Shown: positions 1 through 12,380 of the stretch, piece by piece | How the letters are laid out: every line of letters begins with the position of its first letter | Numbering within the stretch: position 1 is the stretch's first letter | The notes under the pieces: model-generated | Database searches by the model: none | Told to the model about the DNA's origin: nothing | The model's input: the letters and a program-made list of their open reading frames with translations, nothing else | Translations under genes and position numbers: made by a program | Source of the DNA: Bacillota bacterium | GTDB taxonomy: Bacteria; Bacillota; Dethiobacteria; DTU022 | Reading direction: 5' to 3' | Length of the DNA: 64,000 bases | Assembly: GCA_034189085.1 (NCBI GenBank) | Contig: JAXHVH010000005.1 | Coordinates: 2,180-66,179 of the forward strand

Positions 1-561
1 GAATTTTTCCGGTTGATCAGTCACCATTTCGGGAGGGTAGTACTGCGGCCCTTCGGGCATCATTGCCAGGGAAGCATCAACAAAACATTCCAGGTTTATT
101 TTCTTCAAAGCAGAAAGAGCAAAATGATCATCAAAGGAGCAGAGCTCTCTATAACGGTTGATGTTTTTAGCCAGAAGTTCGGGCGCGGCCAGATCTATTT
201 TGTTTAAAACCAGGAAAACCGGGCTTTCAGTCATTTCGAGAAACTCTGCAATGTAGGCATCACCCCTGCCGGGAGGTTTATCTGCTTCCACCACGAAGCA
301 AATCAAATCGACCTCCTGCATGGTTGCCCTGGCCATACGAACCATCGCTGTGCCAAGCAGGTGTTTCGGTTTGTGCAACCCCGGGGTGTCGATATAAATC
401 ATCTGCCCTTCCGGCCTGGTCAGCACAGCCCGAATCTGGTTCCTGGTAGTCTGGGGCCGGTCCGAGGTAATGGCTATTTTTTCGTCGACCAGGCTGTTGA
501 GAAGGGTCGACTTGCCCACATTAGGCCTTCCAATCAAAGCGGCAAATCCTGATTTATGCAT
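1..561 (-). CDS. era: GTPase Era (5' part; runs off the window edge)
   Basis: Manual translation from ATG at 561: MHKSGFAALIGRPNVGKSTLLN...QTTRNQI...DTPGLH...NKID (G1-G4 motifs); lies directly downstream of cdd. Confidence 0.95.
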   Translation of the reverse strand, partial: MHKSGFAALIGRPNVGKSTLLNSLVDEKIAITSDRPQTTRNQIRAVLTRPEGQMIYIDTPGLHKPKHLLGTAMVRMARATMQEVDLICFVVEADKPPGRGDAYIAEFLEMTESPVFLVLNKIDLAAPELLAKNINRYRELCSFDDHFALSALKKINLECFVDASLAMMPEGPQYYPPEMVTDQPEKF

Positions 562-579
562 GAAATACCTTCTTATTTT

Positions 580-1413
580 TTAATTGATGATTGTTTTCAG
601 ATCAAGAACCGGTGTCCCGTTGATCAGATCCAGTCCCCTGACCATGATCCGGTTACGGTCCACCGCCATAATCTCTCCGGTCGACTGGGCAATGGCATTG
701 GGACGGTGCGGGGAGTGGCAGGCAAAAATGCCATAGATTTCGTTTCCCCTGCCTCTGCGCCTATCTTTGAGGGTAAATCCCCGGGATTGATGCAGGTAAG
801 CAATAACCGTTATTTTTTCCTCTTCATCTACCCGGTAGAGTCCTTCTTCCATCTCAGGATCGAGAATGATCTGCGAAATCAATTCCCGGTAATTGTCCGG
901 TATGTCCTTTGGACTTAGAATATTATTGGCCACATAACCGATGGGGGTAAAAGATACCGGCAGGCGCCATAGATCTTCTTCCTCCTCCCGATTCCGGCCC
1001 ACAGGGTTGTCAGCCCATGCCGCCCCTCCATAAGGCTCCGGCAGGAGATCGAGTAGAGGCATCACCACCATTTCTCCTGCCAGGTTGCCCATAATCACTT
1101 CAATGTTCCCGGTTATTTCCCAGATTACCTGCCGGCAGGCTCCGCATGGAACCGGGGGTTGGGTACAGTCGGCCACGATGGCAATTTTACTGAATCGGCG
1201 ATAGCCGTAGTGCACAGCAGTCCAGCAGGCTAACCTCTCAGCACAAACAGTCAACCCCAGTGAAGAATTCTCGATGTTGCTGCCGGTTATAACGTTGCCT
1301 TCCCCTGTAAGCAAAGCCGCTCCCACCGGAAACCGGGAATAGGGCGCATAGGCTTTCAGACGCGCCGCCCGCGCAACAGCCAGTAAGGTTTCTCTTTTCA
1401 CCGGGGTAAACAC
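580..1413 (-). CDS. cdd: Cytidine deaminase fused to a C-terminal TrmO/TsaA (YaeB-like) SAM-binding domain
   Basis: N-half has AYAPYS, NIEN, CAER and PCGACRQ Zn motifs. C-half has FTPIGYV...GIFACHSPHRPN...GLDLINGTPVLDLK, which is TsaA-like. Occupies the cdd position in dgkA-cdd-era. Confidence 0.9.
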   Translation of the reverse strand: MFTPVKRETLLAVARAARLKAYAPYSRFPVGAALLTGEGNVITGSNIENSSLGLTVCAERLACWTAVHYGYRRFSKIAIVADCTQPPVPCGACRQVIWEITGNIEVIMGNLAGEMVVMPLLDLLPEPYGGAAWADNPVGRNREEEEDLWRLPVSFTPIGYVANNILSPKDIPDNYRELISQIILDPEMEEGLYRVDEEEKITVIAYLHQSRGFTLKDRRRGRGNEIYGIFACHSPHRPNAIAQSTGEIMAVDRNRIMVRGLDLINGTPVLDLKTIIN

Positions 1414-1424
1414 CTCTCTTCACT

Positions 1425-2480
1425 TTATTCGGCGTACACATAGGCCGGCAGTTTGATAAAACCGGAATGGCTGATATTAAAAACAAGGCCTCGTTTATCT
1501 TCAAGTTCTTCGATGATGATGTCCAGGCCGCTGATTAGCAAGTCCGGTTCGCCGACTGCTTGAATGGTAACCGGGTTGGTGGGAATCTGCTGGTAATTAA
1601 CCATAATTAAAGGCCCGGTACATCGAATGGCGCTGGTAACCGTCAGTCTCTGACCACCTACGCTAACTCCTCGTGCTCCCGCACTGAAAAGTTCGTTCAC
1701 TATGTCACGAATATCGGCATCGTGCACCAGAGCCCTGCTTCCCTCGGATTCCATGGCATCGTAAATCTGCAGGGTAATCCCGGGTCCGACCATCTCCGCC
1801 AGGCCGGCCTGTACCCTCATTTCATACAGCCTCAGCCGCAGTGAATTGCGATCTTCGTTTAAAGTTTCAAGCTGCTCCTGCGTTGTCTGTGGCACCACCA
1901 GGGTAGCAGTGCCATCAACAATTTCAAGATCAATGCTTTGTTCCGCAAAACAGCGATCCTGGGTGTAAATTGTTTTAATTTCCTGAACGGTGTGGGGTTC
2001 TAAAAATTGATCGGGGTAAATGTCAATTTTGCCTTCGGTTACTCTGATATATAAATGGGTTTTCTCTGCAGTTCCCTGAACAATGGCGTCTTCATTAACA
2101 GCAGCCATCACCTTCTCTTTTAACAAATCGTCGGCTTCCCTGATAATTGTTTCCTGGGCACAGCGGCCCTGGTTGAGGATAATTTGGATCAGATCATCGC
2201 TGGTTACGGCCAGATCCACGGCATAATTATATTCTGCCAGCGCTTCCCTGACTGCGGGAACATTGTCCACTTCCATGTCATTGGCCAGGCGATGAATATA
2301 ATCAGATAAATCGCGGGCCAGTTCCTGTTTGTAAGAAAAAAGGTTGTCCGCAGCTCTGACGCTTGTAATCACATAGTAGTAACCGAAAGCGATGAGAATG
2401 GTATTGATCAGAATAATTACCAGGATCACCAGCTGCACCTTACCGCTGCTGGAAGAACGGTGGTCCGAATACCCGGACAT
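1425..2480 (-). CDS. DUF881 family membrane-anchored protein with long N-terminal extension
   Basis: N-terminal TM helix; C-terminal AGLAEMVGPGITL...VHDADIRDIVNELFSAGARGVSVGGQR...AIRCTGP DUF881 signature. Confidence 0.8.
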   Translation of the reverse strand: MSGYSDHRSSSSGKVQLVILVIILINTILIAFGYYYVITSVRAADNLFSYKQELARDLSDYIHRLANDMEVDNVPAVREALAEYNYAVDLAVTSDDLIQIILNQGRCAQETIIREADDLLKEKVMAAVNEDAIVQGTAEKTHLYIRVTEGKIDIYPDQFLEPHTVQEIKTIYTQDRCFAEQSIDLEIVDGTATLVVPQTTQEQLETLNEDRNSLRLRLYEMRVQAGLAEMVGPGITLQIYDAMESEGSRALVHDADIRDIVNELFSAGARGVSVGGQRLTVTSAIRCTGPLIMVNYQQIPTNPVTIQAVGEPDLLISGLDIIIEELEDKRGLVFNISHSGFIKLPAYVYAE

Positions 2481-2514
2481 AATTAAGTCAATCCCCCATT
2501 ATAATTAATTTCAC

Positions 2515-2883
2515 TTACAAAATCCCTCTGATAATTGACCACAGGGGCGGCCCCAGAACGACAACCCCCACGATCACGGCATAGACAGCAGTAAGCAAAA
2601 CGGCCCCTGCAGCAACATCTTTGGACGTTTGAGCCAGGTGACTACGCTTTTTTGTATAAAGATCAATCGTCTTTTCTACAGACGTGTTAAAAGTTTCAGC
2701 AACCAGCACCAGCACTACGGCAGTAACCAGGAACAGCATGCCGTTAAGTCCGACTCTGAGGCTTAATCCGGCTGCCAGGGCGGCAATCCCGGCCAGGCCG
2801 TGAATGGTCATATTTCGCTGCGTCCTAAAACAATATACCAGGCCGATGCAGGCGTTTTTCAGACTTCTTTGGACTTCTCTCAT
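2515..2883 (-). CDS. dgkA: Diacylglycerol/undecaprenol kinase
   Basis: QRNMTIH, ETFNTSVEKTIDL and KDVAAGAVL motifs; ybeY-dgkA synteny. Confidence 0.92.
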   Translation of the reverse strand: MREVQRSLKNACIGLVYCFRTQRNMTIHGLAGIAALAAGLSLRVGLNGMLFLVTAVVLVLVAETFNTSVEKTIDLYTKKRSHLAQTSKDVAAGAVLLTAVYAVIVGVVVLGPPLWSIIRGIL

Positions 2884-2888
2884 TCTCT

Positions 2889-3359
2889 TTATTCCTCCAC
2901 CAGGAAGCCAGAATACAGTCTCAGCAGTTCCTGTTCCTTCTTCCTCATTCGGGCGGTATCCCCCTCTTCTTCATGATCGAATCCCAGCAAATGGAGCATG
3001 CCGTGGATGGCCAGCAGCAGTATCTCCTTTTCCAGGGAGTGACCTGCTTTTTCCGCCTGTTCACGGGCTCGATCGATGGAAATATAAATATCTCCAAAAG
3101 CAAAATCCTCTTCATGCCCCTGATCAAGATTTTCTTCTGCATCAAAATATGAGAAAGAAAGGACATCGGTCGGAGCATCCCTGTCCCTGAAACGACGGTT
3201 CAGATCATGAAGATAGCTGTCGCCGGCAATAACTACCGCCGTTTCACCACCCTTCAGGTTGTGCTCTGCCAGCAGATCATTAACCACCCTGAGCAGCTTT
3301 TCAGTGACTTTCCTGGAAAGACCTTCATTACCTTTTAAAAAGTTTATTGTAACGCTCAC
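2889..3359 (-). CDS. ybeY: rRNA maturation endoribonuclease YbeY
   Basis: PTDVLSF, GDIYIS and HGMLHLLGFDH motifs. Confidence 0.96.
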   Translation of the reverse strand: MSVTINFLKGNEGLSRKVTEKLLRVVNDLLAEHNLKGGETAVVIAGDSYLHDLNRRFRDRDAPTDVLSFSYFDAEENLDQGHEEDFAFGDIYISIDRAREQAEKAGHSLEKEILLLAIHGMLHLLGFDHEEEGDTARMRKKEQELLRLYSGFLVEE

Positions 3360-5467
3360 CTGGTAGCCCTGCTCCTTTCGATTTCCGCTTTCAGTTCCTT
3401 TTCCGGATATTCAATCCGCGAATGATAGACGCCGGACATGATGTAAATAAAAGCATCGGCTATGATGTCAAGTTCCTTCAGCGTCAGATCACTCTGGTCA
3501 AGCTGTCCGTCTTCCAATTTTTCTTTGATCATCCGCCGGACCATCATTTCGACCCGGTTACTGGTGGGCTTGGTTAAAGAACGCACTCCCGCTTCCACTG
3601 CATCAGCCAGCATAATAATGGCCGCTTCCTTGGTCTGCGGTTTTGGCCCTTCATAGCGAAATTTTTCTGCCTCTATATTCTCTTCCCCGTTCTGTTCCAC
3701 CGCTTGCTGGTAAAAAAAGGAAATCATACTGGTACCGTGATGCTGGGCAGCTATATCAATAATGGGCTCTGGTAAACGATATTTTCGCCCCATGTCCACC
3801 CCATCCTTGGGGTGAGCCCCGATTATCAAGGCGCTGAGGTTGGGTGACAGTTTTTGATGCGGATTTTCTCCCGAAAGCTGGTTTTCAGAAAAGAAATAAG
3901 GCCTTTTTAACTTGCCAATGTCATGGTAATAAGCACCAACTCTGGTCAGAAGCGAATTTGCCTTGACGCGGTCGGCTGCCGCTTCGGCCAGGTTTGAAAC
4001 CATCATGCTGTGATAATAAGTACCCGGAGCTTTGAGAAGCAGTTCTCGCAGCAGGGGATGGTTGGGGTTTGACAGTTCCAGGAGGGTAATAGCCGTAGTC
4101 ACCCCGAACAGACTTTCCAGGAATGGAAGCAGACCAATGGCCACCACTGCAGAAAAAATACCGTTGCCTACCCCGGCAATGGCACTGTAACTAAAATTGA
4201 TCAGCGAATCCGTTTCCATGCTCACATTTCCGAAAAAGAGGTAAACTGCCAGAATCAAAGTAAAATCGGTGGCCGATACATAAAATCCAGCCCTGGCCAG
4301 GTCACTGCGTTGACTGAGCCTGGTCACTGCATAAATGGAGGCCAGCCCTCCCATCAAGGCTACCAGGATATAAGAAAATTCACCGCCGGTGATCAATCCC
4401 ACCATTAAAGTGAGCGCCAGGTTGTTGATCAAGGCCAGCTTATAACCAAATAAAACTGTTATGAGGATCACACCCATGGCCACCGGGACGAAAAATCCCG
4501 AAAAATAAGAAGCAGCCACGGAAAAAACAAGGGTGATGAAAAATACCAGGCCCATCAATAAAAGTAAAGACGGGCTGTTAAAAACATCATTGACAAAGAT
4601 GTAGATATAACTGCCGGCCAATATAAAAACTACGGCCAACAGCAGAAACAGGCCAATATAGGCCGGGTAATCGGCCTGCTGCCCCCTGATCAGGCCGAGA
4701 TCTTCGAGCAGGGCATACTGGTGCTCGGTAACCGGTTCGCCCTCACTGACAATCAAAGTATCGCGGAAAACAATCACCGGCTCGACCTGCCGGCGAGCCA
4801 GCTCACGGCTTTCTTCAGTGGCCATGGCATTGTAAAACATGTTCTGTTCCACCAGGGGTTCAACCAGTGTTTCAGCAATTCTTTTTAATTCGGCACTGAC
4901 CGGATAAAGAGCAATTTCCTGATTCAATCGCCGGCGGGCCAGTGCTTCTTCGTCTTCTTTAATCCCCTGTTCAAAAACATCACGAACGGAGTTGTTGATC
5001 CTTTCCTGCAAATCCCTCAGTGTGTCCGTATCGGTGAGCAGGGCTTCTACCGCTGAAGGAGGTAAATCATTGCCAACTATGCTTTCAAGGATTTCTAATT
5101 TTTCTTCAGGTTCCAGCTCCGGGTCTTCCGTGATATCGAGGATATCATCAAAAAAGGTCCCAATTTCAGCCAGGGCTCGATCGAGGACATCCGGATCATA
5201 ATCGAAAACTTCCTCCACCGATTCTGAAGCATCCTGGCGGCGCTCTTCCGTGGCATATTCATCGACGGCATCGCGGGGCGCAAAAATCGTTTGCGGGCTT
5301 GGACGCCCTACATTAATATCCAGGCGGGCGGGCATACTGACAAAAGCCAGCAAGAAATAGATAGCCGCGAAAAGAACGACAACGAGGACAAATTTTTGCA
5401 AACCCTTGCTATCTTTAAAAGAAATTGAGCGGTTAAATATTTCTTTCCAATTAGTCTTTTTCTTCAT
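3356..5467 (-). CDS. pgpH: 7TM-HD phosphohydrolase (c-di-AMP phosphodiesterase PgpH-like)
   Basis: Extracellular domain, 7 TM helices, APGTYYHS, YYHDIGK, HHGT and MLAD motifs. Start placed at MKKKTNW (5467), overlapping the phoH end. Confidence 0.88.
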   Translation of the reverse strand: MKKKTNWKEIFNRSISFKDSKGLQKFVLVVVLFAAIYFLLAFVSMPARLDINVGRPSPQTIFAPRDAVDEYATEERRQDASESVEEVFDYDPDVLDRALAEIGTFFDDILDITEDPELEPEEKLEILESIVGNDLPPSAVEALLTDTDTLRDLQERINNSVRDVFEQGIKEDEEALARRRLNQEIALYPVSAELKRIAETLVEPLVEQNMFYNAMATEESRELARRQVEPVIVFRDTLIVSEGEPVTEHQYALLEDLGLIRGQQADYPAYIGLFLLLAVVFILAGSYIYIFVNDVFNSPSLLLLMGLVFFITLVFSVAASYFSGFFVPVAMGVILITVLFGYKLALINNLALTLMVGLITGGEFSYILVALMGGLASIYAVTRLSQRSDLARAGFYVSATDFTLILAVYLFFGNVSMETDSLINFSYSAIAGVGNGIFSAVVAIGLLPFLESLFGVTTAITLLELSNPNHPLLRELLLKAPGTYYHSMMVSNLAEAAADRVKANSLLTRVGAYYHDIGKLKRPYFFSENQLSGENPHQKLSPNLSALIIGAHPKDGVDMGRKYRLPEPIIDIAAQHHGTSMISFFYQQAVEQNGEENIEAEKFRYEGPKPQTKEAAIIMLADAVEAGVRSLTKPTSNRVEMMVRRMIKEKLEDGQLDQSDLTLKELDIIADAFIYIMSGVYHSRIEYPEKELKAEIERSRATR

Positions 5468-6461
5468 AACCGTTCCTTTCTTTACCGTTCCGTTCCTTTG
5501 AAGCCTCATATTCTTCGTAGGCTTTAATGATACTCTGAACCAGAGGGTGCCTGACAACATCTTTTTCAGTCAGGTTGACCAGGGCAATCCCTTCGATGTT
5601 GGCCAGAATACGGGATGCTTCCTCCAGGCCGGAATAACGTCCTTTCGGTAGATCAACCTGGGTAATATCGCCGGTGATTACCGCCTTTGAGCCGAAACCA
5701 AGCCGGGTGAGAAACATTTTCATTTGTTCAGAGGTAGCATTCTGCCCTTCATCAAGGATAACGAAGGAATCATCAAGGGTCCTGCCCCTCATATAGGCAA
5801 GGGGAGCAATTTCGATTACTCCTCTTTCCCGGTATTTTTGGAACACATCGATTCCCAGCAAATCATAGAGCCCGTCGTAAATGGGCCGCAGGTAGGGATC
5901 GACTTTCTCCTGGAAATCCCCGGGCAGAAAACCGAGATGCTCGCCTGCTTCAACCGCCGGGCGGGTTAAAATGAGGCGCTGGACCTGCTTGTTTTTCAAA
6001 GCATCAACAGCCATCGCCAGGGCCAGGTAGGTTTTCCCCGTTCCGGCCGGTCCGATTGAAAGAACTACATCATAACGCCGGATCGCTTCTAAATAGTGTT
6101 TCTGTCCCACTGTTTTCGGCCGGATCTGTTTCCCCCGCGGTGTCACCAGAAGCAGATCGCTGAAAACAGTCCGGATTGATTCAACATCTCCTTCAGAGGT
6201 CAGTTTTAAAGCATATTCAAATTCCCGACCCGTCAGCAGGTGCCCCTTCCGGATGTGTTCCAGCAGTTCCTGAAACATGCGATAAACCTGTTCTACATCT
6301 TCGGGGGAACCTTCTATGGCCAGTTCATGTCCTTTTGGAATCAGACGCACCGCAAAACAATCTTCAATCAGGCGGAAATGACGGTCATGTTTTCCCAATA
6401 GCTGAATTGACTCGTCTCCGCCCTTTAAAAGAATGGTCCGGCTGCTTTTAATTTCAGACAA
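5451..6461 (-). CDS. phoH: PhoH family ATPase
   Basis: GPAGTGKTYLA, RPAVEAGE, LGFLPGD, YMRGRT and GDITQVDLP motifs. Confidence 0.95.
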   Translation of the reverse strand: MSEIKSSRTILLKGGDESIQLLGKHDRHFRLIEDCFAVRLIPKGHELAIEGSPEDVEQVYRMFQELLEHIRKGHLLTGREFEYALKLTSEGDVESIRTVFSDLLLVTPRGKQIRPKTVGQKHYLEAIRRYDVVLSIGPAGTGKTYLALAMAVDALKNKQVQRLILTRPAVEAGEHLGFLPGDFQEKVDPYLRPIYDGLYDLLGIDVFQKYRERGVIEIAPLAYMRGRTLDDSFVILDEGQNATSEQMKMFLTRLGFGSKAVITGDITQVDLPKGRYSGLEEASRILANIEGIALVNLTEKDVVRHPLVQSIIKAYEEYEASKERNGKERNGYEEKD

Positions 6462-6599
6462 ATAGAAACTTCTCCCTTCAACTTAATCCCGTTAAAGATT
6501 ACCTTCCCTTTCCGAACAGCCCGGCCAATCCGAGGAAAGGTGATTTTATATTTTGTAAAATAGGGTACTTCGACGATATTTTTAATAATCCTTTAATGA

Positions 6600-6623
6600 A
6601 AAGACCGCCGGATAAGCGGTCAA
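6600..6623 (-). terminator. Probable intrinsic terminator after the floA operon
   Basis: Minus strand GACCGC-ttatccg-GCGGTC followed by TTTT. Confidence 0.55.
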
Positions 6624-6680
6624 TTTTTGCTTTATGACTATTGTTACTGCTGTTCCTGTGGTTTTAAACATATTATCTTT

Positions 6681-7169
6681 TCAACGCCTCTTCCGCAGGG
6701 AGACCGGCGGCCCCATCACTTCGTGAAATGCAATGGCCGCCACCAGCGAATCTTTATCCGTCAGGACCTGCCTGAAACTCTCTGTAAATGCTGGAGAATC
6801 TTTGATTTCTTTTTCGGGCAGTTCTGGTTCTTCTGATTCCTCCCCTGAAGATTGCTCTTCACCTATTACCATCTCTTCGCCGAAATCCTCTCCGGAAGGC
6901 TCATCGGGTTCTTTATCATCCTCGTCATAGACCCATTCGCCATAAGGTACCCCATGATCTGTCTTCGCTTCGACAACTTCGCCCAGCAGTGTAGAACCAT
7001 AATTATTTATGGCTTCCGTGGTTACATCATGATCTGACAGAACAGCTCTTTCCCCGACGGAAGATGTTTTCGGCGCAGGGTTGCTTTTTCTCCCCTTGAT
7101 TACTTTCATCAGGGTTGCAACCAGGTTAATAAGGATGATCAGCACGATCAGGAAACTGAAACCTTCCAT
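6681..7169 (-). CDS. Acidic membrane-anchored hypothetical protein (YqfB position)
   Basis: N-terminal TM helix, acidic linker, C-terminal AIAFHEVMGPPVSLRKRR; follows floA. Confidence 0.7.
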   Translation of the reverse strand: MEGFSFLIVLIILINLVATLMKVIKGRKSNPAPKTSSVGERAVLSDHDVTTEAINNYGSTLLGEVVEAKTDHGVPYGEWVYDEDDKEPDEPSGEDFGEEMVIGEEQSSGEESEEPELPEKEIKDSPAFTESFRQVLTDKDSLVAAIAFHEVMGPPVSLRKRR

Positions 7170-7190
7170 AGATGTGGTCAGACCTCCGAT

Positions 7191-8180
7191 TTACTTATTA
7201 TCGTCCTGCTGGTCCTGCTGCCCCAGTTTGCTTATACTCTTACGCATATCTGTGTCAGCAAGCACATTTTTCATCTGGTAGTAGTCCATCACCCCGAGGT
7301 TGCCTTCGCGCAGAGCCTGGGCCAGAGCTCGGGGAACTTCCGCTTCCGCCTCGACAACCTTGGCCCTCATTTCCTGCACCGAGGCAATCATTTCCTGCTC
7401 CTTGGCCACGGCCATGGCCCGCCTTTCTTCTGCTTTAGCCTGGGCAATTCTCTTGTCTGCTTCGGCCTGATCAGTCTGCAGCTGGGCTCCAATGTTTTTG
7501 CCCACGTCTACATCGGCAACATCAATAGACAGTATTTCGTAAGCAGTCCCTGAATCGAGGCCCTTGGCCAGAACAGTATTGGATATCTTATCCGGATTTT
7601 CAAGAACCATTTTATGGTTATCTGAAGAGCCGATAGTCGTGACAATCCCTTCGCCAACCCTGGCGATGATCGTTTCTTCGCCGGCCCCTCCTACCAAACG
7701 GTCAATGTTGGCCCTCACAGTTACCTTGGCCCGTGCTTTTACTTCGATACCATCCTTGGCTACCGCAACTACGACCGGGGTTTCAATAACCTTTGGATTA
7801 ACACTCATCTGCACTGCCTGCAGCACATCACGGCCGGCCAGGTCAATGGCGGCAGCCCTTTCGAAAGGCAGGGGTATTTCAGCCCGCTGGGCGGCAATCA
7901 GGGCGTTAACCACCCGGTCTACGTTACCTCCAGCCAGGAAATGGCCTTCAAGCTTGTTAACGCTCAAATCCAGGCCGGCCTTGGTAGCTTTAATCAAGGG
8001 AACCACAATCTTAATTGGGGTTACCCTGCGCAGGCGCATTCCAATCAAAGCAAAGATCCCCACGGGAACCCGGGCTGCCAGGGCTGAAATCCACAACCCC
8101 AGGGGAACAAAGCTCAAGATCACCGCCAGGGCAAGAATAATTAAACCAATAAATATTAAAAGGGTAATAATTTCAGGCAT
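7191..8180 (-). CDS. floA: Flotillin-like protein FloA (YqfA, UPF0365)
   Basis: [32 protein letters not shown] and QTDQAEADK motifs. Confidence 0.95.
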
Positions 8181-8183
8181 ATT

Positions 8184-9518
8184 TTAGTCCTCCTTCTCCT
8201 TGTTTTTCAAAGCTTGGACTATCACCCGCACTCCTTCAACCCGCTGGACAACAACCGGTTCATTTGCAGGTATATATGATCCATCGCTGACGACGTCGAT
8301 TCGTCTGCCGTCAATCAGAGCCGCCCCGGAAGGACGCAGGGCAGTAATGCTTTCTCCTTCCATCCCGAGCAATTTTTTCTGATCGAGGGGAGCTACATAA
8401 CCGAGATCCGTTCTTTCCTCATCAGATAGAATGATATGGCGCAGCGCTCCCCTGCGGGCAAAAAAGCGAAAAGCGAGAACGGCGAAAAGACCGGCCAGAA
8501 CAAAAGATATGATGAGCATTACCAGCCCTGTTTGAATCGACACGGCAGCCAGGACTATGGCCACTACCATGGCCACGATTCCCCCGATGCCAAACACGCC
8601 AAACCCCGGCATAAAAGCCTCCACCAGCAACAGGGCAATACCGAAAACAAAGAGGATCACAACCCAGTATTCAGCCATTCCTGCAACAATATTGCCGCCG
8701 AAATAAAGGGCAAAAGCAATTATGCTGACAATACCGGCAATGCCGAAACCGGCCGAAATAATTTCCACGATTAATCCACCCAGGCCAATCATCAGCAAAA
8801 TAGTGCCCACAACAGGATTGGTAGTCCAACCCACCATACTGTCTACGGCCCGTTTTTCTACTACTGTCCAGTCGGTTCCAGGCAGGCCTGCTTCTGCCAG
8901 TAATGCATCATAGTTTTCGACCGTTCCTTCACTGTAACCAACGTTCAGGGCCTCACCTGCAGTAAGAGTAAGAAGAGTCCCCTCTTCTGATAGGCCTTCA
9001 ACGACCAGGTCCCGACGGACCATGGCCGAGGCAATACTCGGATCCCTGCCTTGCCGTTCCGCCATGGCAGCCATTTCCTTTTCCCAGTAAGAAAGGGATT
9101 TTTCATCAACTTCACCCAGCCCAAGATAGCTGGGCTCGGCAGCACCAATAGTGGCACCTGGTACCATGTATATAGAGTCGGCGGCCAGGGCCAGGTAAGC
9201 ACCGGCTGAAATGGCATTGGGCCGCACAAAAGCATGAATCGGCCTGTCATATTCGTCCATCAGCCGCCTTATTTCTTCGGCCGAATTAATGTAGCCACCC
9301 GGTGTGTCAAGTTCAAGAATGACAGCTGGAGCATCGTTTTCCCTGACCATGTCAAAAGCATGCCGGGCATAGCTTACAGTCCCCGGATCGATGGTCCCTT
9401 CGATTTTGACAATCACTACCCTCTGGCTGGGTGCCGCCTCAACAGTAATTATACCACAGGCAAGCAGTCCGCAGAGAAGGCAGATTAGCCAGAAAAAACA
9501 TCTTATTTTCCTGTCCAT
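8184..9518 (-). CDS. nfeD: NfeD family membrane protease (YqeZ)
   Basis: ClpP-like LDTPGG and AISAGAYLAL, TM block, C-terminal LRPSG OB fold; upstream of floA. Confidence 0.9.
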   Translation of the reverse strand: MDRKIRCFFWLICLLCGLLACGIITVEAAPSQRVVIVKIEGTIDPGTVSYARHAFDMVRENDAPAVILELDTPGGYINSAEEIRRLMDEYDRPIHAFVRPNAISAGAYLALAADSIYMVPGATIGAAEPSYLGLGEVDEKSLSYWEKEMAAMAERQGRDPSIASAMVRRDLVVEGLSEEGTLLTLTAGEALNVGYSEGTVENYDALLAEAGLPGTDWTVVEKRAVDSMVGWTTNPVVGTILLMIGLGGLIVEIISAGFGIAGIVSIIAFALYFGGNIVAGMAEYWVVILFVFGIALLLVEAFMPGFGVFGIGGIVAMVVAIVLAAVSIQTGLVMLIISFVLAGLFAVLAFRFFARRGALRHIILSDEERTDLGYVAPLDQKKLLGMEGESITALRPSGAALIDGRRIDVVSDGSYIPANEPVVVQRVEGVRVIVQALKNKEKED

Positions 9519-9536
9519 TTCCCGATCTCCTTAAAG

Positions 9537-9561
9537 GAAAACCCGGCCATGAGGGCCGGGG
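9537..9561 (-). terminator. Probable intrinsic terminator/attenuator between yqeY and nfeD
   Basis: Minus strand CCCGGCC-ctcat-GGCCGGG followed by TTTT. Confidence 0.55.
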
Positions 9562-9563
9562 CT

Positions 9564-10016
9564 CTATCCCAGAATATTTTCCACCATTCGTCGGACAAGA
9601 TTTCCATCGGCCTTTCCTTTAACCCGGGCCATTATTAAACCCATTACTTTACCCATGTCCCGCTTGGAAACGGCCCCGCTTTCGGCGACTGCATCGCGAA
9701 CCAGTTTCTCCAGCTCGCTCTCGGAGAACTGTTCGGGAAGATATTTTTTCAAGATTTCAATCTCCCTGGCCAGATCGTCGGCCAGATCCTGCCGCCCGGC
9801 TTTTTTGAATTCATCCAGAGCTTCATGTCTTTTCTTTGCTTCATGAGCCAGGACTGCAAGCTCTTCTTCGGCTTCGAGAGGAGCTTTTTTGGCTATCGCT
9901 TCATTCTGCAGTTCAGAACGCACCATTCTGAGCACTGAAAGGCGGAAGCGGTCTTTGGCTCTTGTCGCTTCTTTCTGTTCTTCATATAGTTTTTCCGTTA
10001 TTGTCCTGTCAGACAC
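9564..10016 (-). CDS. yqeY: GatB/YqeY domain protein
   Basis: EIEILKKYLPEQ and DMGKVMG motifs; follows rpsU. Confidence 0.92.
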   Translation of the reverse strand: MSDRTITEKLYEEQKEATRAKDRFRLSVLRMVRSELQNEAIAKKAPLEAEEELAVLAHEAKKRHEALDEFKKAGRQDLADDLAREIEILKKYLPEQFSESELEKLVRDAVAESGAVSKRDMGKVMGLIMARVKGKADGNLVRRMVENILG

Positions 10017-10042
10017 AGACGAAACACCTCCGCCCAGGCTCC

Positions 10043-10216
10043 TTAATGGCGCCTCTTACGAGCAGCTTCAGCTTTTTTCTTGCGGCGAACACTCGGTTTT
10101 TCATAATGCTCACGCCGCCTCGCTTCGGATAAAACGCCCGAACGGGCGCATTGTTTTTTAAACCTCTTTAGAGCCTTATCTAGGGTCTCATTCTTCCCAA
10201 TTTTGACTTCTGCCAT
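10043..10216 (-). CDS. rpsU: 30S ribosomal protein S21
   Basis: [21 protein letters not shown]...[12 protein letters not shown]; start at ATG 10216 behind a GGGGAG RBS. Confidence 0.97.
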
Positions 10217-10283
10217 GAATATACTCCCCCCTCTCCTCGGAAACCACTGCCCATGGGCTACCCCAGGGTAGTTTAAAACTATT

Positions 10284-10646
10284 TTAAACACCCCTGCCTT
10301 TGGCAATGTTTTTCAACAAAGGTCTACCGCCAAGGAGGTGGAGATGAAGGTGAAAGACTATCTGTCCCGCATCCGGTCCGCAATTGATGACTACACGGTA
10401 ACCTTTTTTGTCAAGTTTAAATTTCTTAGCCACCTCGTTGGCCACAGTGTGCAAATGGCCTATGAGGGGTTCATCATCTTTTTCGAGATCAAGAAGGCTG
10501 GGAATGTGCTTGCGCGGTACGATCAAAATATGGACAGGAGCCACCGGATTAACATCCTTAAAGGCAACTACCTCATCATCCTCATATACAATATCGGCAT
10601 CAAGCTCCCTGTTTATGATCTTGCAAAAAATGCAGTCAGCCGACAT
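10284..10646 (-). CDS. hinT: HIT family nucleotide-binding protein
   Basis: DCIFCKI and HLHLHLLGG histidine triad. Confidence 0.93.
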
Positions 10647-10879
10647 ATTGATACCTCCTGACGGGTATTATAACACAGCCATTTTACCTTGAAAAGGAAG
10701 TTGACATAAATAAAGACCATTTTAAATAATTAACTTCGCTAAAGAGACCTTTATTACCTTTCTGGCAGAAAAAGTTTTTACACCTCCTTGGGAATACATT
10801 ATAATTATTATAAGATTTTCATTCAAGCTTATGGAACTGATTCGATCACCGGTTCATCATCTTAAGAGAGGGGAACACG

Positions 10880-11971
10880 ATGGAGATCACTATCGAAAAA
10901 GCGCTCGAGCGCACCGATCTGCAGTTCATAGATGTCCGCTCCCCGCATGAATTCAGGGAGGCCTCCATACCGGGATCTCTGAATGTCCCTCTTTTTGACG
11001 ATGCTGAACACAGCCGGCTCGGTTTGCTCTTCAGAGAAAAGGGAGAAATCGCCGCCAGGCGAGCCGGCCTGCAAATAGCCGCCCCCAAATTGCCCCACCT
11101 GGTTGAACAAATAAGCGGCGCCTGCAAAGGAAAAATACCCCTTCTTTACTGCCAGAGAGGCGGTCTTCGCAGCCTCAGCCTCTATCAGATTCTCAACCTC
11201 TGTGGAATAACAGTTTTCCGCCTGCAAAACGGTTACCGCGGTTTTCGGCAATACGTTGTCAAACGGTTGAAGGATTACCATCTGCAGAGCAGGTTGATCG
11301 TCCTTCATGGATTGACCGGCGCAGGTAAAACAGCGGTTCTCAAAGTGCTGGAAGAAGAAGGGGTGCCGGTAATAGACCTGGAAGGCCTGGCCGGACACCG
11401 CGGTTCTGTTTTCGGAGCAGTGGGGCTGCCTGAACAGCAAACCCAAAAAGAGTTTGATGCCCTGCTGCTGCAGGAACTGGATCGCCGGCGTGAAAATCCA
11501 TGGATAGTTGTTGAAGGGGAAGGCAAACGCATCGGCCGTGTAAGCCTCCCGCCTTTCCTGGTTGAAGCCCTGGATGAAGGTTTCAAGATTCTGTTGACTG
11601 CATCGCTGGAAACAAGAGTGCGAAGAATCGTCGACAGTTACATCCCGGCCGAGCCTTCACCCGAACTGCTGAACCAGCTTAAAGAAGCAGTTAATGCACT
11701 ACGCCGACGCCTTGGTAACAAAAAGGTCGATTTTTTATTGGCCGAGCTGGATCGAAAAAATTTTGACCGGGTTGCCACATCCATGTGTGTCGATTATTAC
11801 GATCACTTATATAGTGATTCACGACCGGAATGTGCCCGCTTTGACGAGCAAATAAACGCCGAAGACATCAACACAGCAGCCGGGCAAATTCAATCTCTGC
11901 TAAAAAATGCAGAAACGGCAACCATACATCCGGGCACCGGCCCAAATAATCGAGTGGGATACAATATTTAA
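10880..11971 (+). CDS. selU: tRNA 2-selenouridine synthase
   Basis: Rhodanese domain (IDVRSPHEF, YCQRGGLRS) plus P-loop GLTGAGKT and DLEGLAGHRGSVFG. Confidence 0.93.
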   Translation: MEITIEKALERTDLQFIDVRSPHEFREASIPGSLNVPLFDDAEHSRLGLLFREKGEIAARRAGLQIAAPKLPHLVEQISGACKGKIPLLYCQRGGLRSLSLYQILNLCGITVFRLQNGYRGFRQYVVKRLKDYHLQSRLIVLHGLTGAGKTAVLKVLEEEGVPVIDLEGLAGHRGSVFGAVGLPEQQTQKEFDALLLQELDRRRENPWIVVEGEGKRIGRVSLPPFLVEALDEGFKILLTASLETRVRRIVDSYIPAEPSPELLNQLKEAVNALRRRLGNKKVDFLLAELDRKNFDRVATSMCVDYYDHLYSDSRPECARFDEQINAEDINTAAGQIQSLLKNAETATIHPGTGPNNRVGYNI

Positions 11972-11999
11972 CAATTTCAGAAAAAGGAGTGACGGATTA

Positions 12000-12380
12000 A
12001 TGAACCCCCATGACGCTGCTCATGCCCTGGCCAGAGCATTACGGGAATCCGAAGAATTCAAAACTCTCAAAGAATTACAGGATAAACTGAAAGGTGAGGA
12101 GACAGCACGCAACATGCTGCTCGATTTCCGCAGGCAGCAATTTGAACTGCAGAAACAAAAGTTATCGGGAGTCGAAGTATCATCGGAACAGGAAGAAAAG
12201 CTGGAAAAGCTCTTCGAGGTAATAAATATGAATACCACTGTTAAAAATTTCCTGGAGGCGGAATACAGGGCTGCCATTTTACTGCAGGATGTCCAGAAAA
12301 TAATCGGGGAAGCAACCGAAAGTATTATCGACACCGAGCTGACCCCTCTGGGCGAAGAACTGGAAGAAGAAAAAGAATGA
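12000..12380 (+). CDS. YlbF/YmcA family regulator
   Basis: MNPHDAAHALARALRESEEF...FLEAEYR; AAGGAG RBS upstream of ATG 12000. Confidence 0.85.
   Translation: MNPHDAAHALARALRESEEFKTLKELQDKLKGEETARNMLLDFRRQQFELQKQKLSGVEVSSEQEEKLEKLFEVINMNTTVKNFLEAEYRAAILLQDVQKIIGEATESIIDTELTPLGEELEEEKE

Follow-up and report, generated by a model that had tools for sequence, protein, structure and literature searches.

A cytidine deaminase of the homotetrameric type fused to a Gln-less TrmO_N β-barrel in one family of uncultured anaerobic Bacillota

Homotetrameric cytidine deaminases (Cdd, or CDA) of the Bacillus subtilis type (solved structures 1jtk, 2d30, and 1mq0) are zinc enzymes with a Cys-Cys-Cys metal site and a catalytic Glu, and proteins of the YaeB family, which include the tRNA methyltransferase TrmO (also known as TsaA), are built around the TrmO_N β-barrel. 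Here we describe a gene that joins these two domains in a single chain. It is located at positions 580 to 1413, on the minus strand, of a 64,000-nucleotide (nt) stretch of DNA (the window) from a Bacillota bacterium of the class Dethiobacteria (GenBank assembly GCA_034189085.1, contig JAXHVH010000005.1, positions 2,180 to 66,179). Both domains are known and domain fusion is common in itself; this particular fusion is old and constrained, being fixed across a family (23 genera among the genomes searched) and having a barrel that is more tightly constrained than the deaminase. We see it, with a probability of about 0.5, as a salvage Cdd with an accessory ligand-binding, dimerizing barrel that tunes or extends the enzyme. 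Automatic annotation names the architecture simply “cytidine deaminase.” An earlier note on this DNA, made from the sequence alone, had called the fusion unfamiliar from characterized proteins, and we likewise found no description of it in the literature, where Fig. S5 and Table S1 of Kimura et al. could still list such architectures.

The reference points for the barrel and its S-adenosylmethionine (SAM, or AdoMet) site come from Kimura et al. (2014; PMC4132733). The short YaeB protein AF0241 from Archaeoglobus fulgidus, whose structure (2nv4) includes SAM, contacts AdoMet through Gln22, Arg82, and Asp111, plus Lys122 from the other subunit; the corresponding tetrad of Escherichia coli TrmO consists of Q25, R92, D125, and K136, of which R92 binds the SAM carboxylate. 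According to the same paper, the R92A and K136A replacements abolish formation of N6-methyl-N6-threonylcarbamoyladenosine (m6t6A) in E. coli, the C-terminal DPRxxY domain is needed in E. coli TrmO, and archaea in which no m6t6A has ever been detected also have short YaeB proteins, which must therefore act on another substrate.

The open reading frame (ORF) discussed here encodes 277 amino acids (aa) if read from the GTG at 1413 to the stop codon at 580 to 582. The earlier note gave this length, and the single open frame stands, but the real start is likely the GTG at 1401, which yields 273 aa: an identical database record (P0002) is 273 aa long, the N termini of homologues fall at this place, and a GAGAGG sequence lies at 1418 to 1413. 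Residue numbers below refer to the 277-aa translation and coordinates to the minus strand of the window. Pfam, NCBIfam, and Foldseek agree on a tetramer-type cytidine deaminase domain at residues 7 to 129 (positions 1027 to 1395). It is followed by a variable linker (residues 130 to 154; positions 952 to 1026) and by a TrmO_N/YaeB-type β-barrel of the Gln-less subtype (residues 155 to 274; positions 592 to 951), which was assigned from Pfam PF01980, phmmer, Foldseek, and subfamily counts. Pfam finds dCMP_cyt_deam_1 on residues 7 to 101 (E value of 9.6e-15) and TrmO_N (PF01980) on residues 176 to 274 (E value of 2.5e-20; 73.2 bits versus a cut-off of 26.8); dCMP_cyt_deam_1/2 and TrmO_N were its only matches, with no THUMP or other RNA-binding domain. 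The NCBIfam model cyt_deam_tetra (TIGR01354) is passed with 118.5 bits (cut-off, 113.65; residues 9 to 129), whereas the tRNA_TsaA model (TIGR00104) is missed with 64 bits versus 93.25. Thus, Pfam and NCBIfam bear out the proposal of a genuine fusion between a Cys-ligated, tetramer-type Cdd and a TrmO_N barrel. The motifs quoted in its favor are all present, and the translation contains TPIGYV (residues 156 to 161), GIFACHSPHRPN (residues 228 to 239), and GLDLINGTPVLDLK (residues 260 to 273).

The best 120 database clusters matched by the fusion protein are all 271 to 303 aa long and all contain both domains. Whole-genome searches, in which matches were counted at E values of 1e-50 or lower and covered residues 5 to 276 in nearly all cases, found the fusion in 65 of the 72 other genomes of the same family (f1; 23 genera) and in none of 76 genomes from the remaining seven families of the class. 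When the phylum was sampled evenly, 6/6 genomes of f1 and 0/394 others had it. Four of the family matches are cut by contig ends, yet reach both domains, and none of the family matches contains a stop codon. Another sequencing run of this study (X2) yielded a contig (record 3) that matches the window from 750 to 1299 with 1 differing letter and no gap and so bridges the linker; run X1 spans the whole gene, although the assembly itself may have been made from it, and runs X3 and X4 contributed short, diverged pieces only. The fusion is therefore no assembly artifact. Absence from close relatives, a stop or frameshift in the linker, and a C-terminal part that fails to match TrmO had been named beforehand as grounds for abandoning it; the fusion is found in close relatives, its linker has neither stop nor frameshift, and its C-terminal part matches Pfam TrmO_N. 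Related contig records are titled Syntrophomonadaceae, Bacillota, or Dethiobacteria. One aberrant database protein, P0122 (240 aa), has the same C-terminal part as a 283-aa fusion protein in genome G036 (L016, 1411 to 2262, minus strand) and a garbled N terminus; it is probably a frameshifted or miscalled copy and no distinct architecture.

In the deaminase half, the CAER motif (residues 57 to 60; positions 1234 to 1245) contains the zinc ligand Cys57 and the catalytic Glu59, and the PCGACRQ motif (residues 89 to 95; positions 1129 to 1149) contains the zinc ligands Cys90 and Cys93; we take these roles to be the same as in B. subtilis CDA. N46, E48, C57, E59, C90, and C93 are each invariant in all 121 fusion proteins, F28 is found in 118 of them, and every one has F or Y at position 128. 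The zinc site, the catalytic Glu, and F28/N46/E48 are all shared with homotetrameric Cdd, and the top Foldseek matches are solved tetrameric CDAs, chains of which are 40 to 48% identical to the fusion with TM scores of up to 0.96 (for 2d30_A, a TM score of 0.96 by target, a root mean square deviation of 0.9 over 123 columns, and 47% identity). In contrast to those enzymes, the fusion continues for ~145 residues (linker plus barrel) directly after the conserved P-x-P-F/Y-G end. Cdd has other fusion partners as well: in P0320, P0322, P0339, P0298, and others, tetramer-type Cdd is joined either to PF01996 (about a dozen clusters; one source gives such a protein the name coenzyme F420-0:L-glutamate ligase/homotetrameric cytidine deaminase) or to PF01048 (one cluster, a 424-aa protein), so that fusion as such is not rare for Cdd.

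A search of the 97%-complete own genome with TIGR01354 gave the fusion as the sole place with a tetramer-type Cdd, which answers the earlier suggestion to look for a separate cdd. The same genome has pyrimidine salvage genes that would use the product of Cdd: pdp (pyrimidine-nucleoside phosphorylase) adjoins deoC on contig 8, and contig 23 carries upp; udk (TIGR00235) was not found in it. Three genomes from sister families (G075 and G078 of f4 and G097 of f5) have the gene order pgpH-ybeY-(dgkA)-DUF881-cdd-era with a plain cdd of 127 to 143 aa, and G048 of f1 has the same order from pgpH to era with a 275-aa fusion in the cdd slot. The Cdd half is thus a positional orthologue of the stand-alone cdd of the sister families, and the cdd-era linkage is older than the fusion. 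In our reading, the fusion protein would serve the family as its ordinary pyrimidine-salvage cytidine/deoxycytidine deaminase, of the zinc-dependent homotetramer type.

Some members of the family have lost the gene. In G015 (94% complete), era follows ~48 nt after the DUF881 gene and the fusion gene is cleanly absent; the fusion query detected no Cdd in this genome. In G002, the gap between DUF881 and era is filled, in place of the fusion, by an 85-aa ORF on the opposite strand (L022, 2591 to 2848, minus strand), which is hydrophobic and lies just upstream of era. Contig 53 of G039 (84% complete) has between DUF881 and era a 40-aa ORF (L024, 1364 to 1486, minus strand) that contains DLIDGTPVLDRKTV and is a decayed remnant of the last strands of the barrel; a stand-alone Cdd of 135 aa is encoded elsewhere in this genome, on a different contig and among unrelated genes. 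In G013 (100% complete), the queries used here detected neither Cdd nor DUF881, and a canonical TsaA is present. These genomes are all metagenome bins, which makes each single case weak. The pattern of loss suits a dispensable salvage enzyme, and in the single case of replacement, that of G039, it is the deaminase that has been replaced.

The barrel resembles AF0241 more than any other solved structure. A phmmer search with the C-terminal 139 residues gave 2nv4 as the best match (E value of 1.3e-14), with Pseudomonas aeruginosa TrmO (7btu), RPA0152 (3okx), and HI0510 (1xqb) among the further matches, and Foldseek retrieved 2nv4_A (E value of 5.5e-10; TM score of 0.72 by target) and 7btu by fold; the barrel query in the ESM Atlas returned only clusters automatically named TsaA/TrmO. 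AF0241 has the same short, barrel-only form, but it is a stand-alone protein with a PRQG Gln loop, whereas the barrel of the fusion is joined to Cdd and has a loop that is two residues shorter. In the alignment, Asp111 of AF0241 corresponds to D262 and Lys122 to K273, each invariant in the 121 fusion proteins; K273 is part of D271-L-K273 (positions 595 to 603), after which 4 residues remain to the protein end. Gln22 has no equivalent, as it falls into the two-residue gap. In place of Arg82 (Arg92 in E. coli), the fusion has His233, within ACHSPHRPN (residues 231 to 239; positions 697 to 723). Arg is found there in 118/121 fusion proteins, and His in this protein, its identical record, and P0003 (86% identical). 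The same-genus genes L004 and L005 likewise read ACHSP, and the family consensus is ACR(A/S/T)P, so that ACHSP instead of ATRSP, correctly noticed earlier, turns out to be a genus-specific trait, in which the carboxylate contact would be altered.

Taken together, the fusion shares with TrmO/TsaA (E. coli YaeB; 7btu) the TrmO_N β-barrel with its RPN, G-x-F, GLD, and D-I/L-K motifs, two residues of the AdoMet site (Asp and Lys) and, in the majority of family members, a third (Arg), and a pairing of two barrels is predicted for it. Unlike TrmO/TsaA, it has DLKT rather than DIKPY, lacks the Gln and, in this genus, the Arg, and, ending 4 residues after DLK, has no C-terminal DPRxxY domain. The description of a full TsaA/YaeB-like barrel therefore holds for the presence of TrmO_N and fails for the Gln loop, which is shortened and has no Gln. 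By these motifs, the barrel is not a canonical tRNA m6t6A methyltransferase, and the doubt raised earlier that it might be nonstandard in this respect was well placed, given the missing DPRxxY and Gln, the His for Arg, and the score below the TIGR00104 cut-off.

The barrel is conserved nearly as well as the deaminase. Over the 121 fusion proteins, mean pairwise identity reaches 0.664 in Cdd and 0.644 in the barrel, as against 0.330 in the linker. Residues W149, P157, Y175, R237, P238, N239, D262, D271, and K273 are invariant in all of them and R150 in 120. W149-R150 belongs to the WRLP segment at the end of the linker, a region of low predicted confidence (pLDDT) in the AlphaFold2 model. The linker had been described as acidic; its acidic run (REEEED) is indeed present but is not conserved in a linker with 33% identity. 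Compared with the two same-genus genes (L004 and L005), the ratio of nonsynonymous to synonymous substitution rates (dN/dS) is 0.12 for the barrel and 0.21 to 0.23 for Cdd; the values are given for same-genus pairs only, because dS is saturated for the more distant L006 and L009. The barrel is under strong purifying selection, and the low ratio and the invariant residues show that the change from Arg to His in this genus has not freed the domain from constraint.

A HMMER scan with the barrel over 1.84 billion representatives gave 2663 matches at E values of 0.001 or lower, from which the 149 best matches outside the cluster of the query were taken. The P[RKH]Q motif is found at the place of the Gln loop in 12 of these 149, which places the barrel in a large subfamily without the Gln. 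TrmO_N is present in 149/149, along with FmdE in 22, Cupin_2 in 2, YkoF in 2, and DUF1847, Ni_insertion (LarC), NUDIX, MOSC, and Transket_pyr in single cases (fusions of these kinds include P0125, P0133, P0141, P0163, P0152, P0191, and P0192); no recognized RNA-binding domain occurs among these 149. A 2010 paper on the FmdE structure, which besides Kimura et al. was all that literature searches on the barrel family returned, mentions an FmdE-UPF0066 architecture. With such partners, the Gln-less barrel looks like a mobile small-molecule module, and by analogy with its relatives (FmdE, other metabolic fusions, and no RNA-binding domain) a small-molecule role would fit the barrel of the fusion as well.

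In a FastTree phylogeny of 165 barrels, the 13 fusion-type tips (11 chosen fusion barrels and the fragments P0122 and P0123) form one clade with a support of 0.985, and its sisters are three stand-alone proteins of 137 to 167 aa (support, 0.79). The fusion in this family has a single origin. In the likely sequence of events, cdd gained a C-terminal short YaeB/TrmO_N barrel a single time, in the ancestor of a clade of uncultured anaerobic Bacillota that has the rank of a family, and the barrel was probably drawn from a subfamily that lacks the SAM-binding Gln. Two local donors were considered and rejected. Canonical short TsaA proteins (140 to 148 aa, with APRQG, ACRSP, and DLKPY; 154 bits on TIGR00104 for one of them) are encoded separately in the same order, and two family members have one; these motifs, identity to the fusion barrel of 38% or less, and a position outside the fusion clade speak against them as donors. 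The gap between cdd and era in the sister families, 35 to 500 nt long, holds at most a small membrane ORF on the opposite strand, which speaks against capture of a neighboring gene. The second TrmO_N gene of the own genome (L001, 1471 to 1887, plus strand; contig 43 of G000), found in line with the earlier suggestion to look for a separate trmO, encodes a 138-aa protein without the first strand and the Gln loop, with ATCSP and hence Cys at the critical Arg, and is located directly upstream of a NifU_N gene. As this protein is noncanonical, the own genome seems to have no canonical TrmO.

The same two domains have been combined elsewhere. P0254 (283 aa), one of the 149 representatives, shows the reverse order, with TrmO_N at residues 26 to 125 and Cdd at residues 154 to 253, as does P0271, which is 84% identical to it and is labeled by one source as coming from a metagenome-assembled genome of a Thermoproteota archaeon; in P0272 (315 aa), Cdd is followed by TrmO_N of a different barrel type. 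CAER and PCGACRQ are intact in all three, and no P[RKH]Q motif was seen by eye in their sequences; the P0254 barrel passes TIGR00104 with 127 bits. Their barrels are ~34% identical to that of the fusion, and the ancestor that they share with the family clade spans 162 of 167 tree tips, so these fusions are independent of the one described here. They are rare (3 clusters): in a scan of metagenome contigs with P0254, all 80 loci kept matched its Cdd half only and were ordinary Cdd loci. That the Cdd/short TrmO_N pairing has arisen more than once argues that the two domains work together. Two proposals of the earlier note, a SAM-regulated deaminase and a coupled methylate-and-deaminate enzyme, may still apply.

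One way to work together would be a bifunctional, two-step enzyme with channeling between the sites. Its barrel would be active as a SAM-dependent transferase, and the group would be transferred to a free pyrimidine nucleoside or nucleotide or to whatever the deaminase uses or makes; methylated cytidines from RNA turnover are one example. Cdd and short TrmO_N have been joined at least twice independently, once with the domains reversed, and this is a classic signature of enzymes of one pathway; the pocket residues D262, K273, RPN, and Arg (118/121) are as invariant as the catalytic residues of Cdd; the barrel dN/dS of 0.12 points in the same direction; and AF0241, the closest solved relative, was crystallized with SAM. 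The view of Kimura et al. (PMC4132733) that archaeal short YaeB proteins without m6t6A need another substrate is also consistent with such an activity. However, we can name no substrate, the barrel has neither the Gln nor, in this genus, the Arg, G039 with its decayed fusion holds a plain 135-aa Cdd, and the fusions of Cdd to the unrelated PF01996 make fusion alone weak evidence. We consider the two-step enzyme unlikely, at less than half the probability of an accessory barrel. A broader variant, quite improbable in our view, holds that short Gln-less YaeB/TrmO_N barrels, far from being tRNA enzymes, are widespread nucleoside-directed SAM enzymes or sensors and that, in the fusion, barrel and Cdd methylate (or modify with SAM in some other way) and deaminate a shared cytidine-type substrate, which could be a free modified nucleoside or an rRNA or tRNA cytidine in ribosome maturation involving ybeY and era. 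If it were true, the repeated, order-independent fusion would be a clue to the function of many orphan short YaeB proteins in bacteria and archaea.

The mention of RNA raises the suggestion, made in the earlier note, of an RNA C-to-U editor. In this scheme, the barrel would target or methylate tRNA or rRNA and the deaminase would edit C to U, in keeping with the ribosome-biogenesis genes ybeY and era nearby. The comparison systems named in that note are CDAT8 of Methanopyrus (a deaminase with THUMP) and trypanosome Trm140 with ADAT2/3. They resemble the fusion in that a cytidine-deaminase-fold domain works with an RNA-modification-related partner; their partners are RNA-binding domains or Rossmann-type methyltransferases acting on tRNA, whereas the fusion has no THUMP and its deaminase is the orthologue of a housekeeping enzyme. 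The gene does lie between ybeY/dgkA/DUF881 and era, the Foldseek list of tetrameric CDAs includes yeast CDD1 (1r5t), whose entry title calls it an orphan C-to-U editase, and the loop K216-R219-G221-R222 is basic and conserved. According to Kimura et al. (PMC4132733), TrmO_N is the catalytic domain of a tRNA methyltransferase. Yet the cdd-era linkage predates the fusion, being found with plain cdd in sister families; the DPRxxY domain needed by E. coli TrmO and any other RNA-binding domain are missing; the barrel falls short of the equivalog cut-off for TrmO and its nearest relatives are joined to metabolic domains; the same taxonomic order has separate short TsaA proteins of the canonical form, complete with Gln, Arg, and DLKPY; and the gene is dispensable in several family members. 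The RNA editor received no positive support; the fusion is the sole housekeeping Cdd in a genome that has salvage genes, the gene has been lost in several members, and the barrel belongs with proteins fused to metabolic domains. We regard an RNA-directed enzyme as highly improbable.

How an accessory barrel might act is suggested by structural models. The AlphaFold2 model of the monomer has a mean pLDDT of 75.8 and a predicted TM score (pTM) of 0.48. A dimer was modeled from two copies of the fusion, the family alignment, and two SAM molecules. It reached an ipSAE of 0.77 (0.77, 0.69, and 0.77 in the individual runs) versus 0.01 for the best control, which may be memory of solved oligomers; in a calibration set that held no ligand, the ipSAE mark was attained for 20 of 30 proteins whose structures are pairs of one chain, compared with 1 of 23 whose structures are single chains. 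At least 89% of the contacts are common to the runs, and the partner pLDDT is at least 88. The modeled interface is symmetric and includes Cdd residues 12 to 70 and 92 to 100, linker residues 128 to 160 (with WRLP), and barrel residues 185 to 276. The D271-K273 segment makes contact with residues 230, 239, and 243 of the partner copy (K273 with residue 230), which is the same intersubunit arrangement as that given for YaeB proteins by Kimura et al. (PMC4132733). The barrel may therefore be pictured, on the strength of this model, as pairing with its counterpart in a second subunit about the two-fold axis of the Cdd dimer, so that the predicted whole would be a Cdd-core tetramer bearing two barrel dimers. 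Such pairing would rebuild the YaeB intersubunit pocket from Asp262, Lys273 of the partner chain, RPN, and, in most members, Arg233. The pocket might bind SAM or a related amino-acid-bearing nucleoside, and the barrel would then be an accessory that tunes or extends the deaminase through regulation or substrate handling.

An interface of this kind would also be expected if the barrel were a ligand-dead structural module, kept only as a clamp of the Cdd subunits for stability or assembly. Family-wide loss of the Gln, replacement of Arg by His in this genus, and a modeled interface that runs continuously through both domains and includes the invariant WRLP segment would all agree with a clamp. 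However, this explanation leaves unaccounted for both the invariance of D262, K273, and R237-P238-N239 in 121/121 fusion proteins and the tighter constraint on the barrel than on the deaminase, and we find it quite unlikely. If the barrel merely stabilizes the tetramer, the finding shrinks to a minor annotation note, namely, that such genes should not be automatically named TrmO.

Returning to the salvage Cdd with an accessory barrel, several observations weigh against it. The Gln that binds the α-amino group of SAM in AF0241 and E. coli TrmO is absent from a loop that is two residues shorter, and His stands where, in the mutational data cited from Kimura et al. (PMC4132733), E. coli R92A abolishes activity; with Gln missing and His for Arg, SAM itself may not be the ligand. 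The pocket motifs are conserved like the catalytic residues of the deaminase, a pattern that a second, active enzyme would show as well, and fusions in both orders in different lineages fit two enzymes of one pathway at least equally well. In the AlphaFold2 model, confidence is low for residues 213 to 238, which form the pocket loop, and the monomer pTM is 0.48; because Cdd tetramers and YaeB dimers have already been solved, the success of the dimer model may reflect likeness or memory and is no proof. The second Cdd of G039 could be a contaminant, as that genome is an 84%-complete metagenome bin. One fusion record, P0017, is labeled Limnocylindrales, a reminder that the limits of the clade rest on binned genomes. 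Finally, the accessory role of the barrel is something that we infer. Bacteria and archaea contain many short YaeB-type barrels, and a link to pyrimidine nucleoside metabolism would be the first functional lead for the group. We see the finding as a plausible lead for these orphan barrels and as no evidence for a new kind of RNA editing.

The gene neighborhood was described earlier as a dgkA-cdd-era slot. The cluster is there, but a 351-aa DUF881 gene (1425 to 2480, minus strand) separates dgkA from cdd, 11 to 23 nt upstream of the fusion gene, so that the order is ybeY-dgkA-DUF881-cdd-era; in the classic Bacillus cluster, dgkA adjoins cdd, and in B. subtilis cdd is next to era, as at this locus. 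The DUF881 gene is kept at this place in 6/6 loci examined, from three families of the order. Further upstream, all on the minus strand and recognized by Pfam, are dgkA, of the prokaryotic diacylglycerol kinase family (2515 to 2883), the endoribonuclease gene ybeY (2889 to 3359), and a 7TM-HD (PgpH-like) gene (3356 to 5560), which heads the conserved cluster. The 5′ part of the gene for the era GTPase (1 to 561, minus strand; Pfam MMR_HSR1) lies 18 nt downstream of the fusion and is cut at the window edge; a full-length orthologue at the same position in G048 passes both NCBIfam Era models. No Rfam family reached the gathering score in window positions 1 to 12000, and thus no riboswitch or leader was seen near the fusion gene. 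On contig 91 of G036, the fusion is followed not by era but by a 257-aa gene (L016, 580 to 1353, minus strand) whose sequence looks like recO, so the cdd-era linkage would be broken in that genus. In G075, a small hydrophobic ORF of 71 aa (L011, 3441 to 3656, minus strand) lies on the opposite strand just upstream of era, after the plain cdd.

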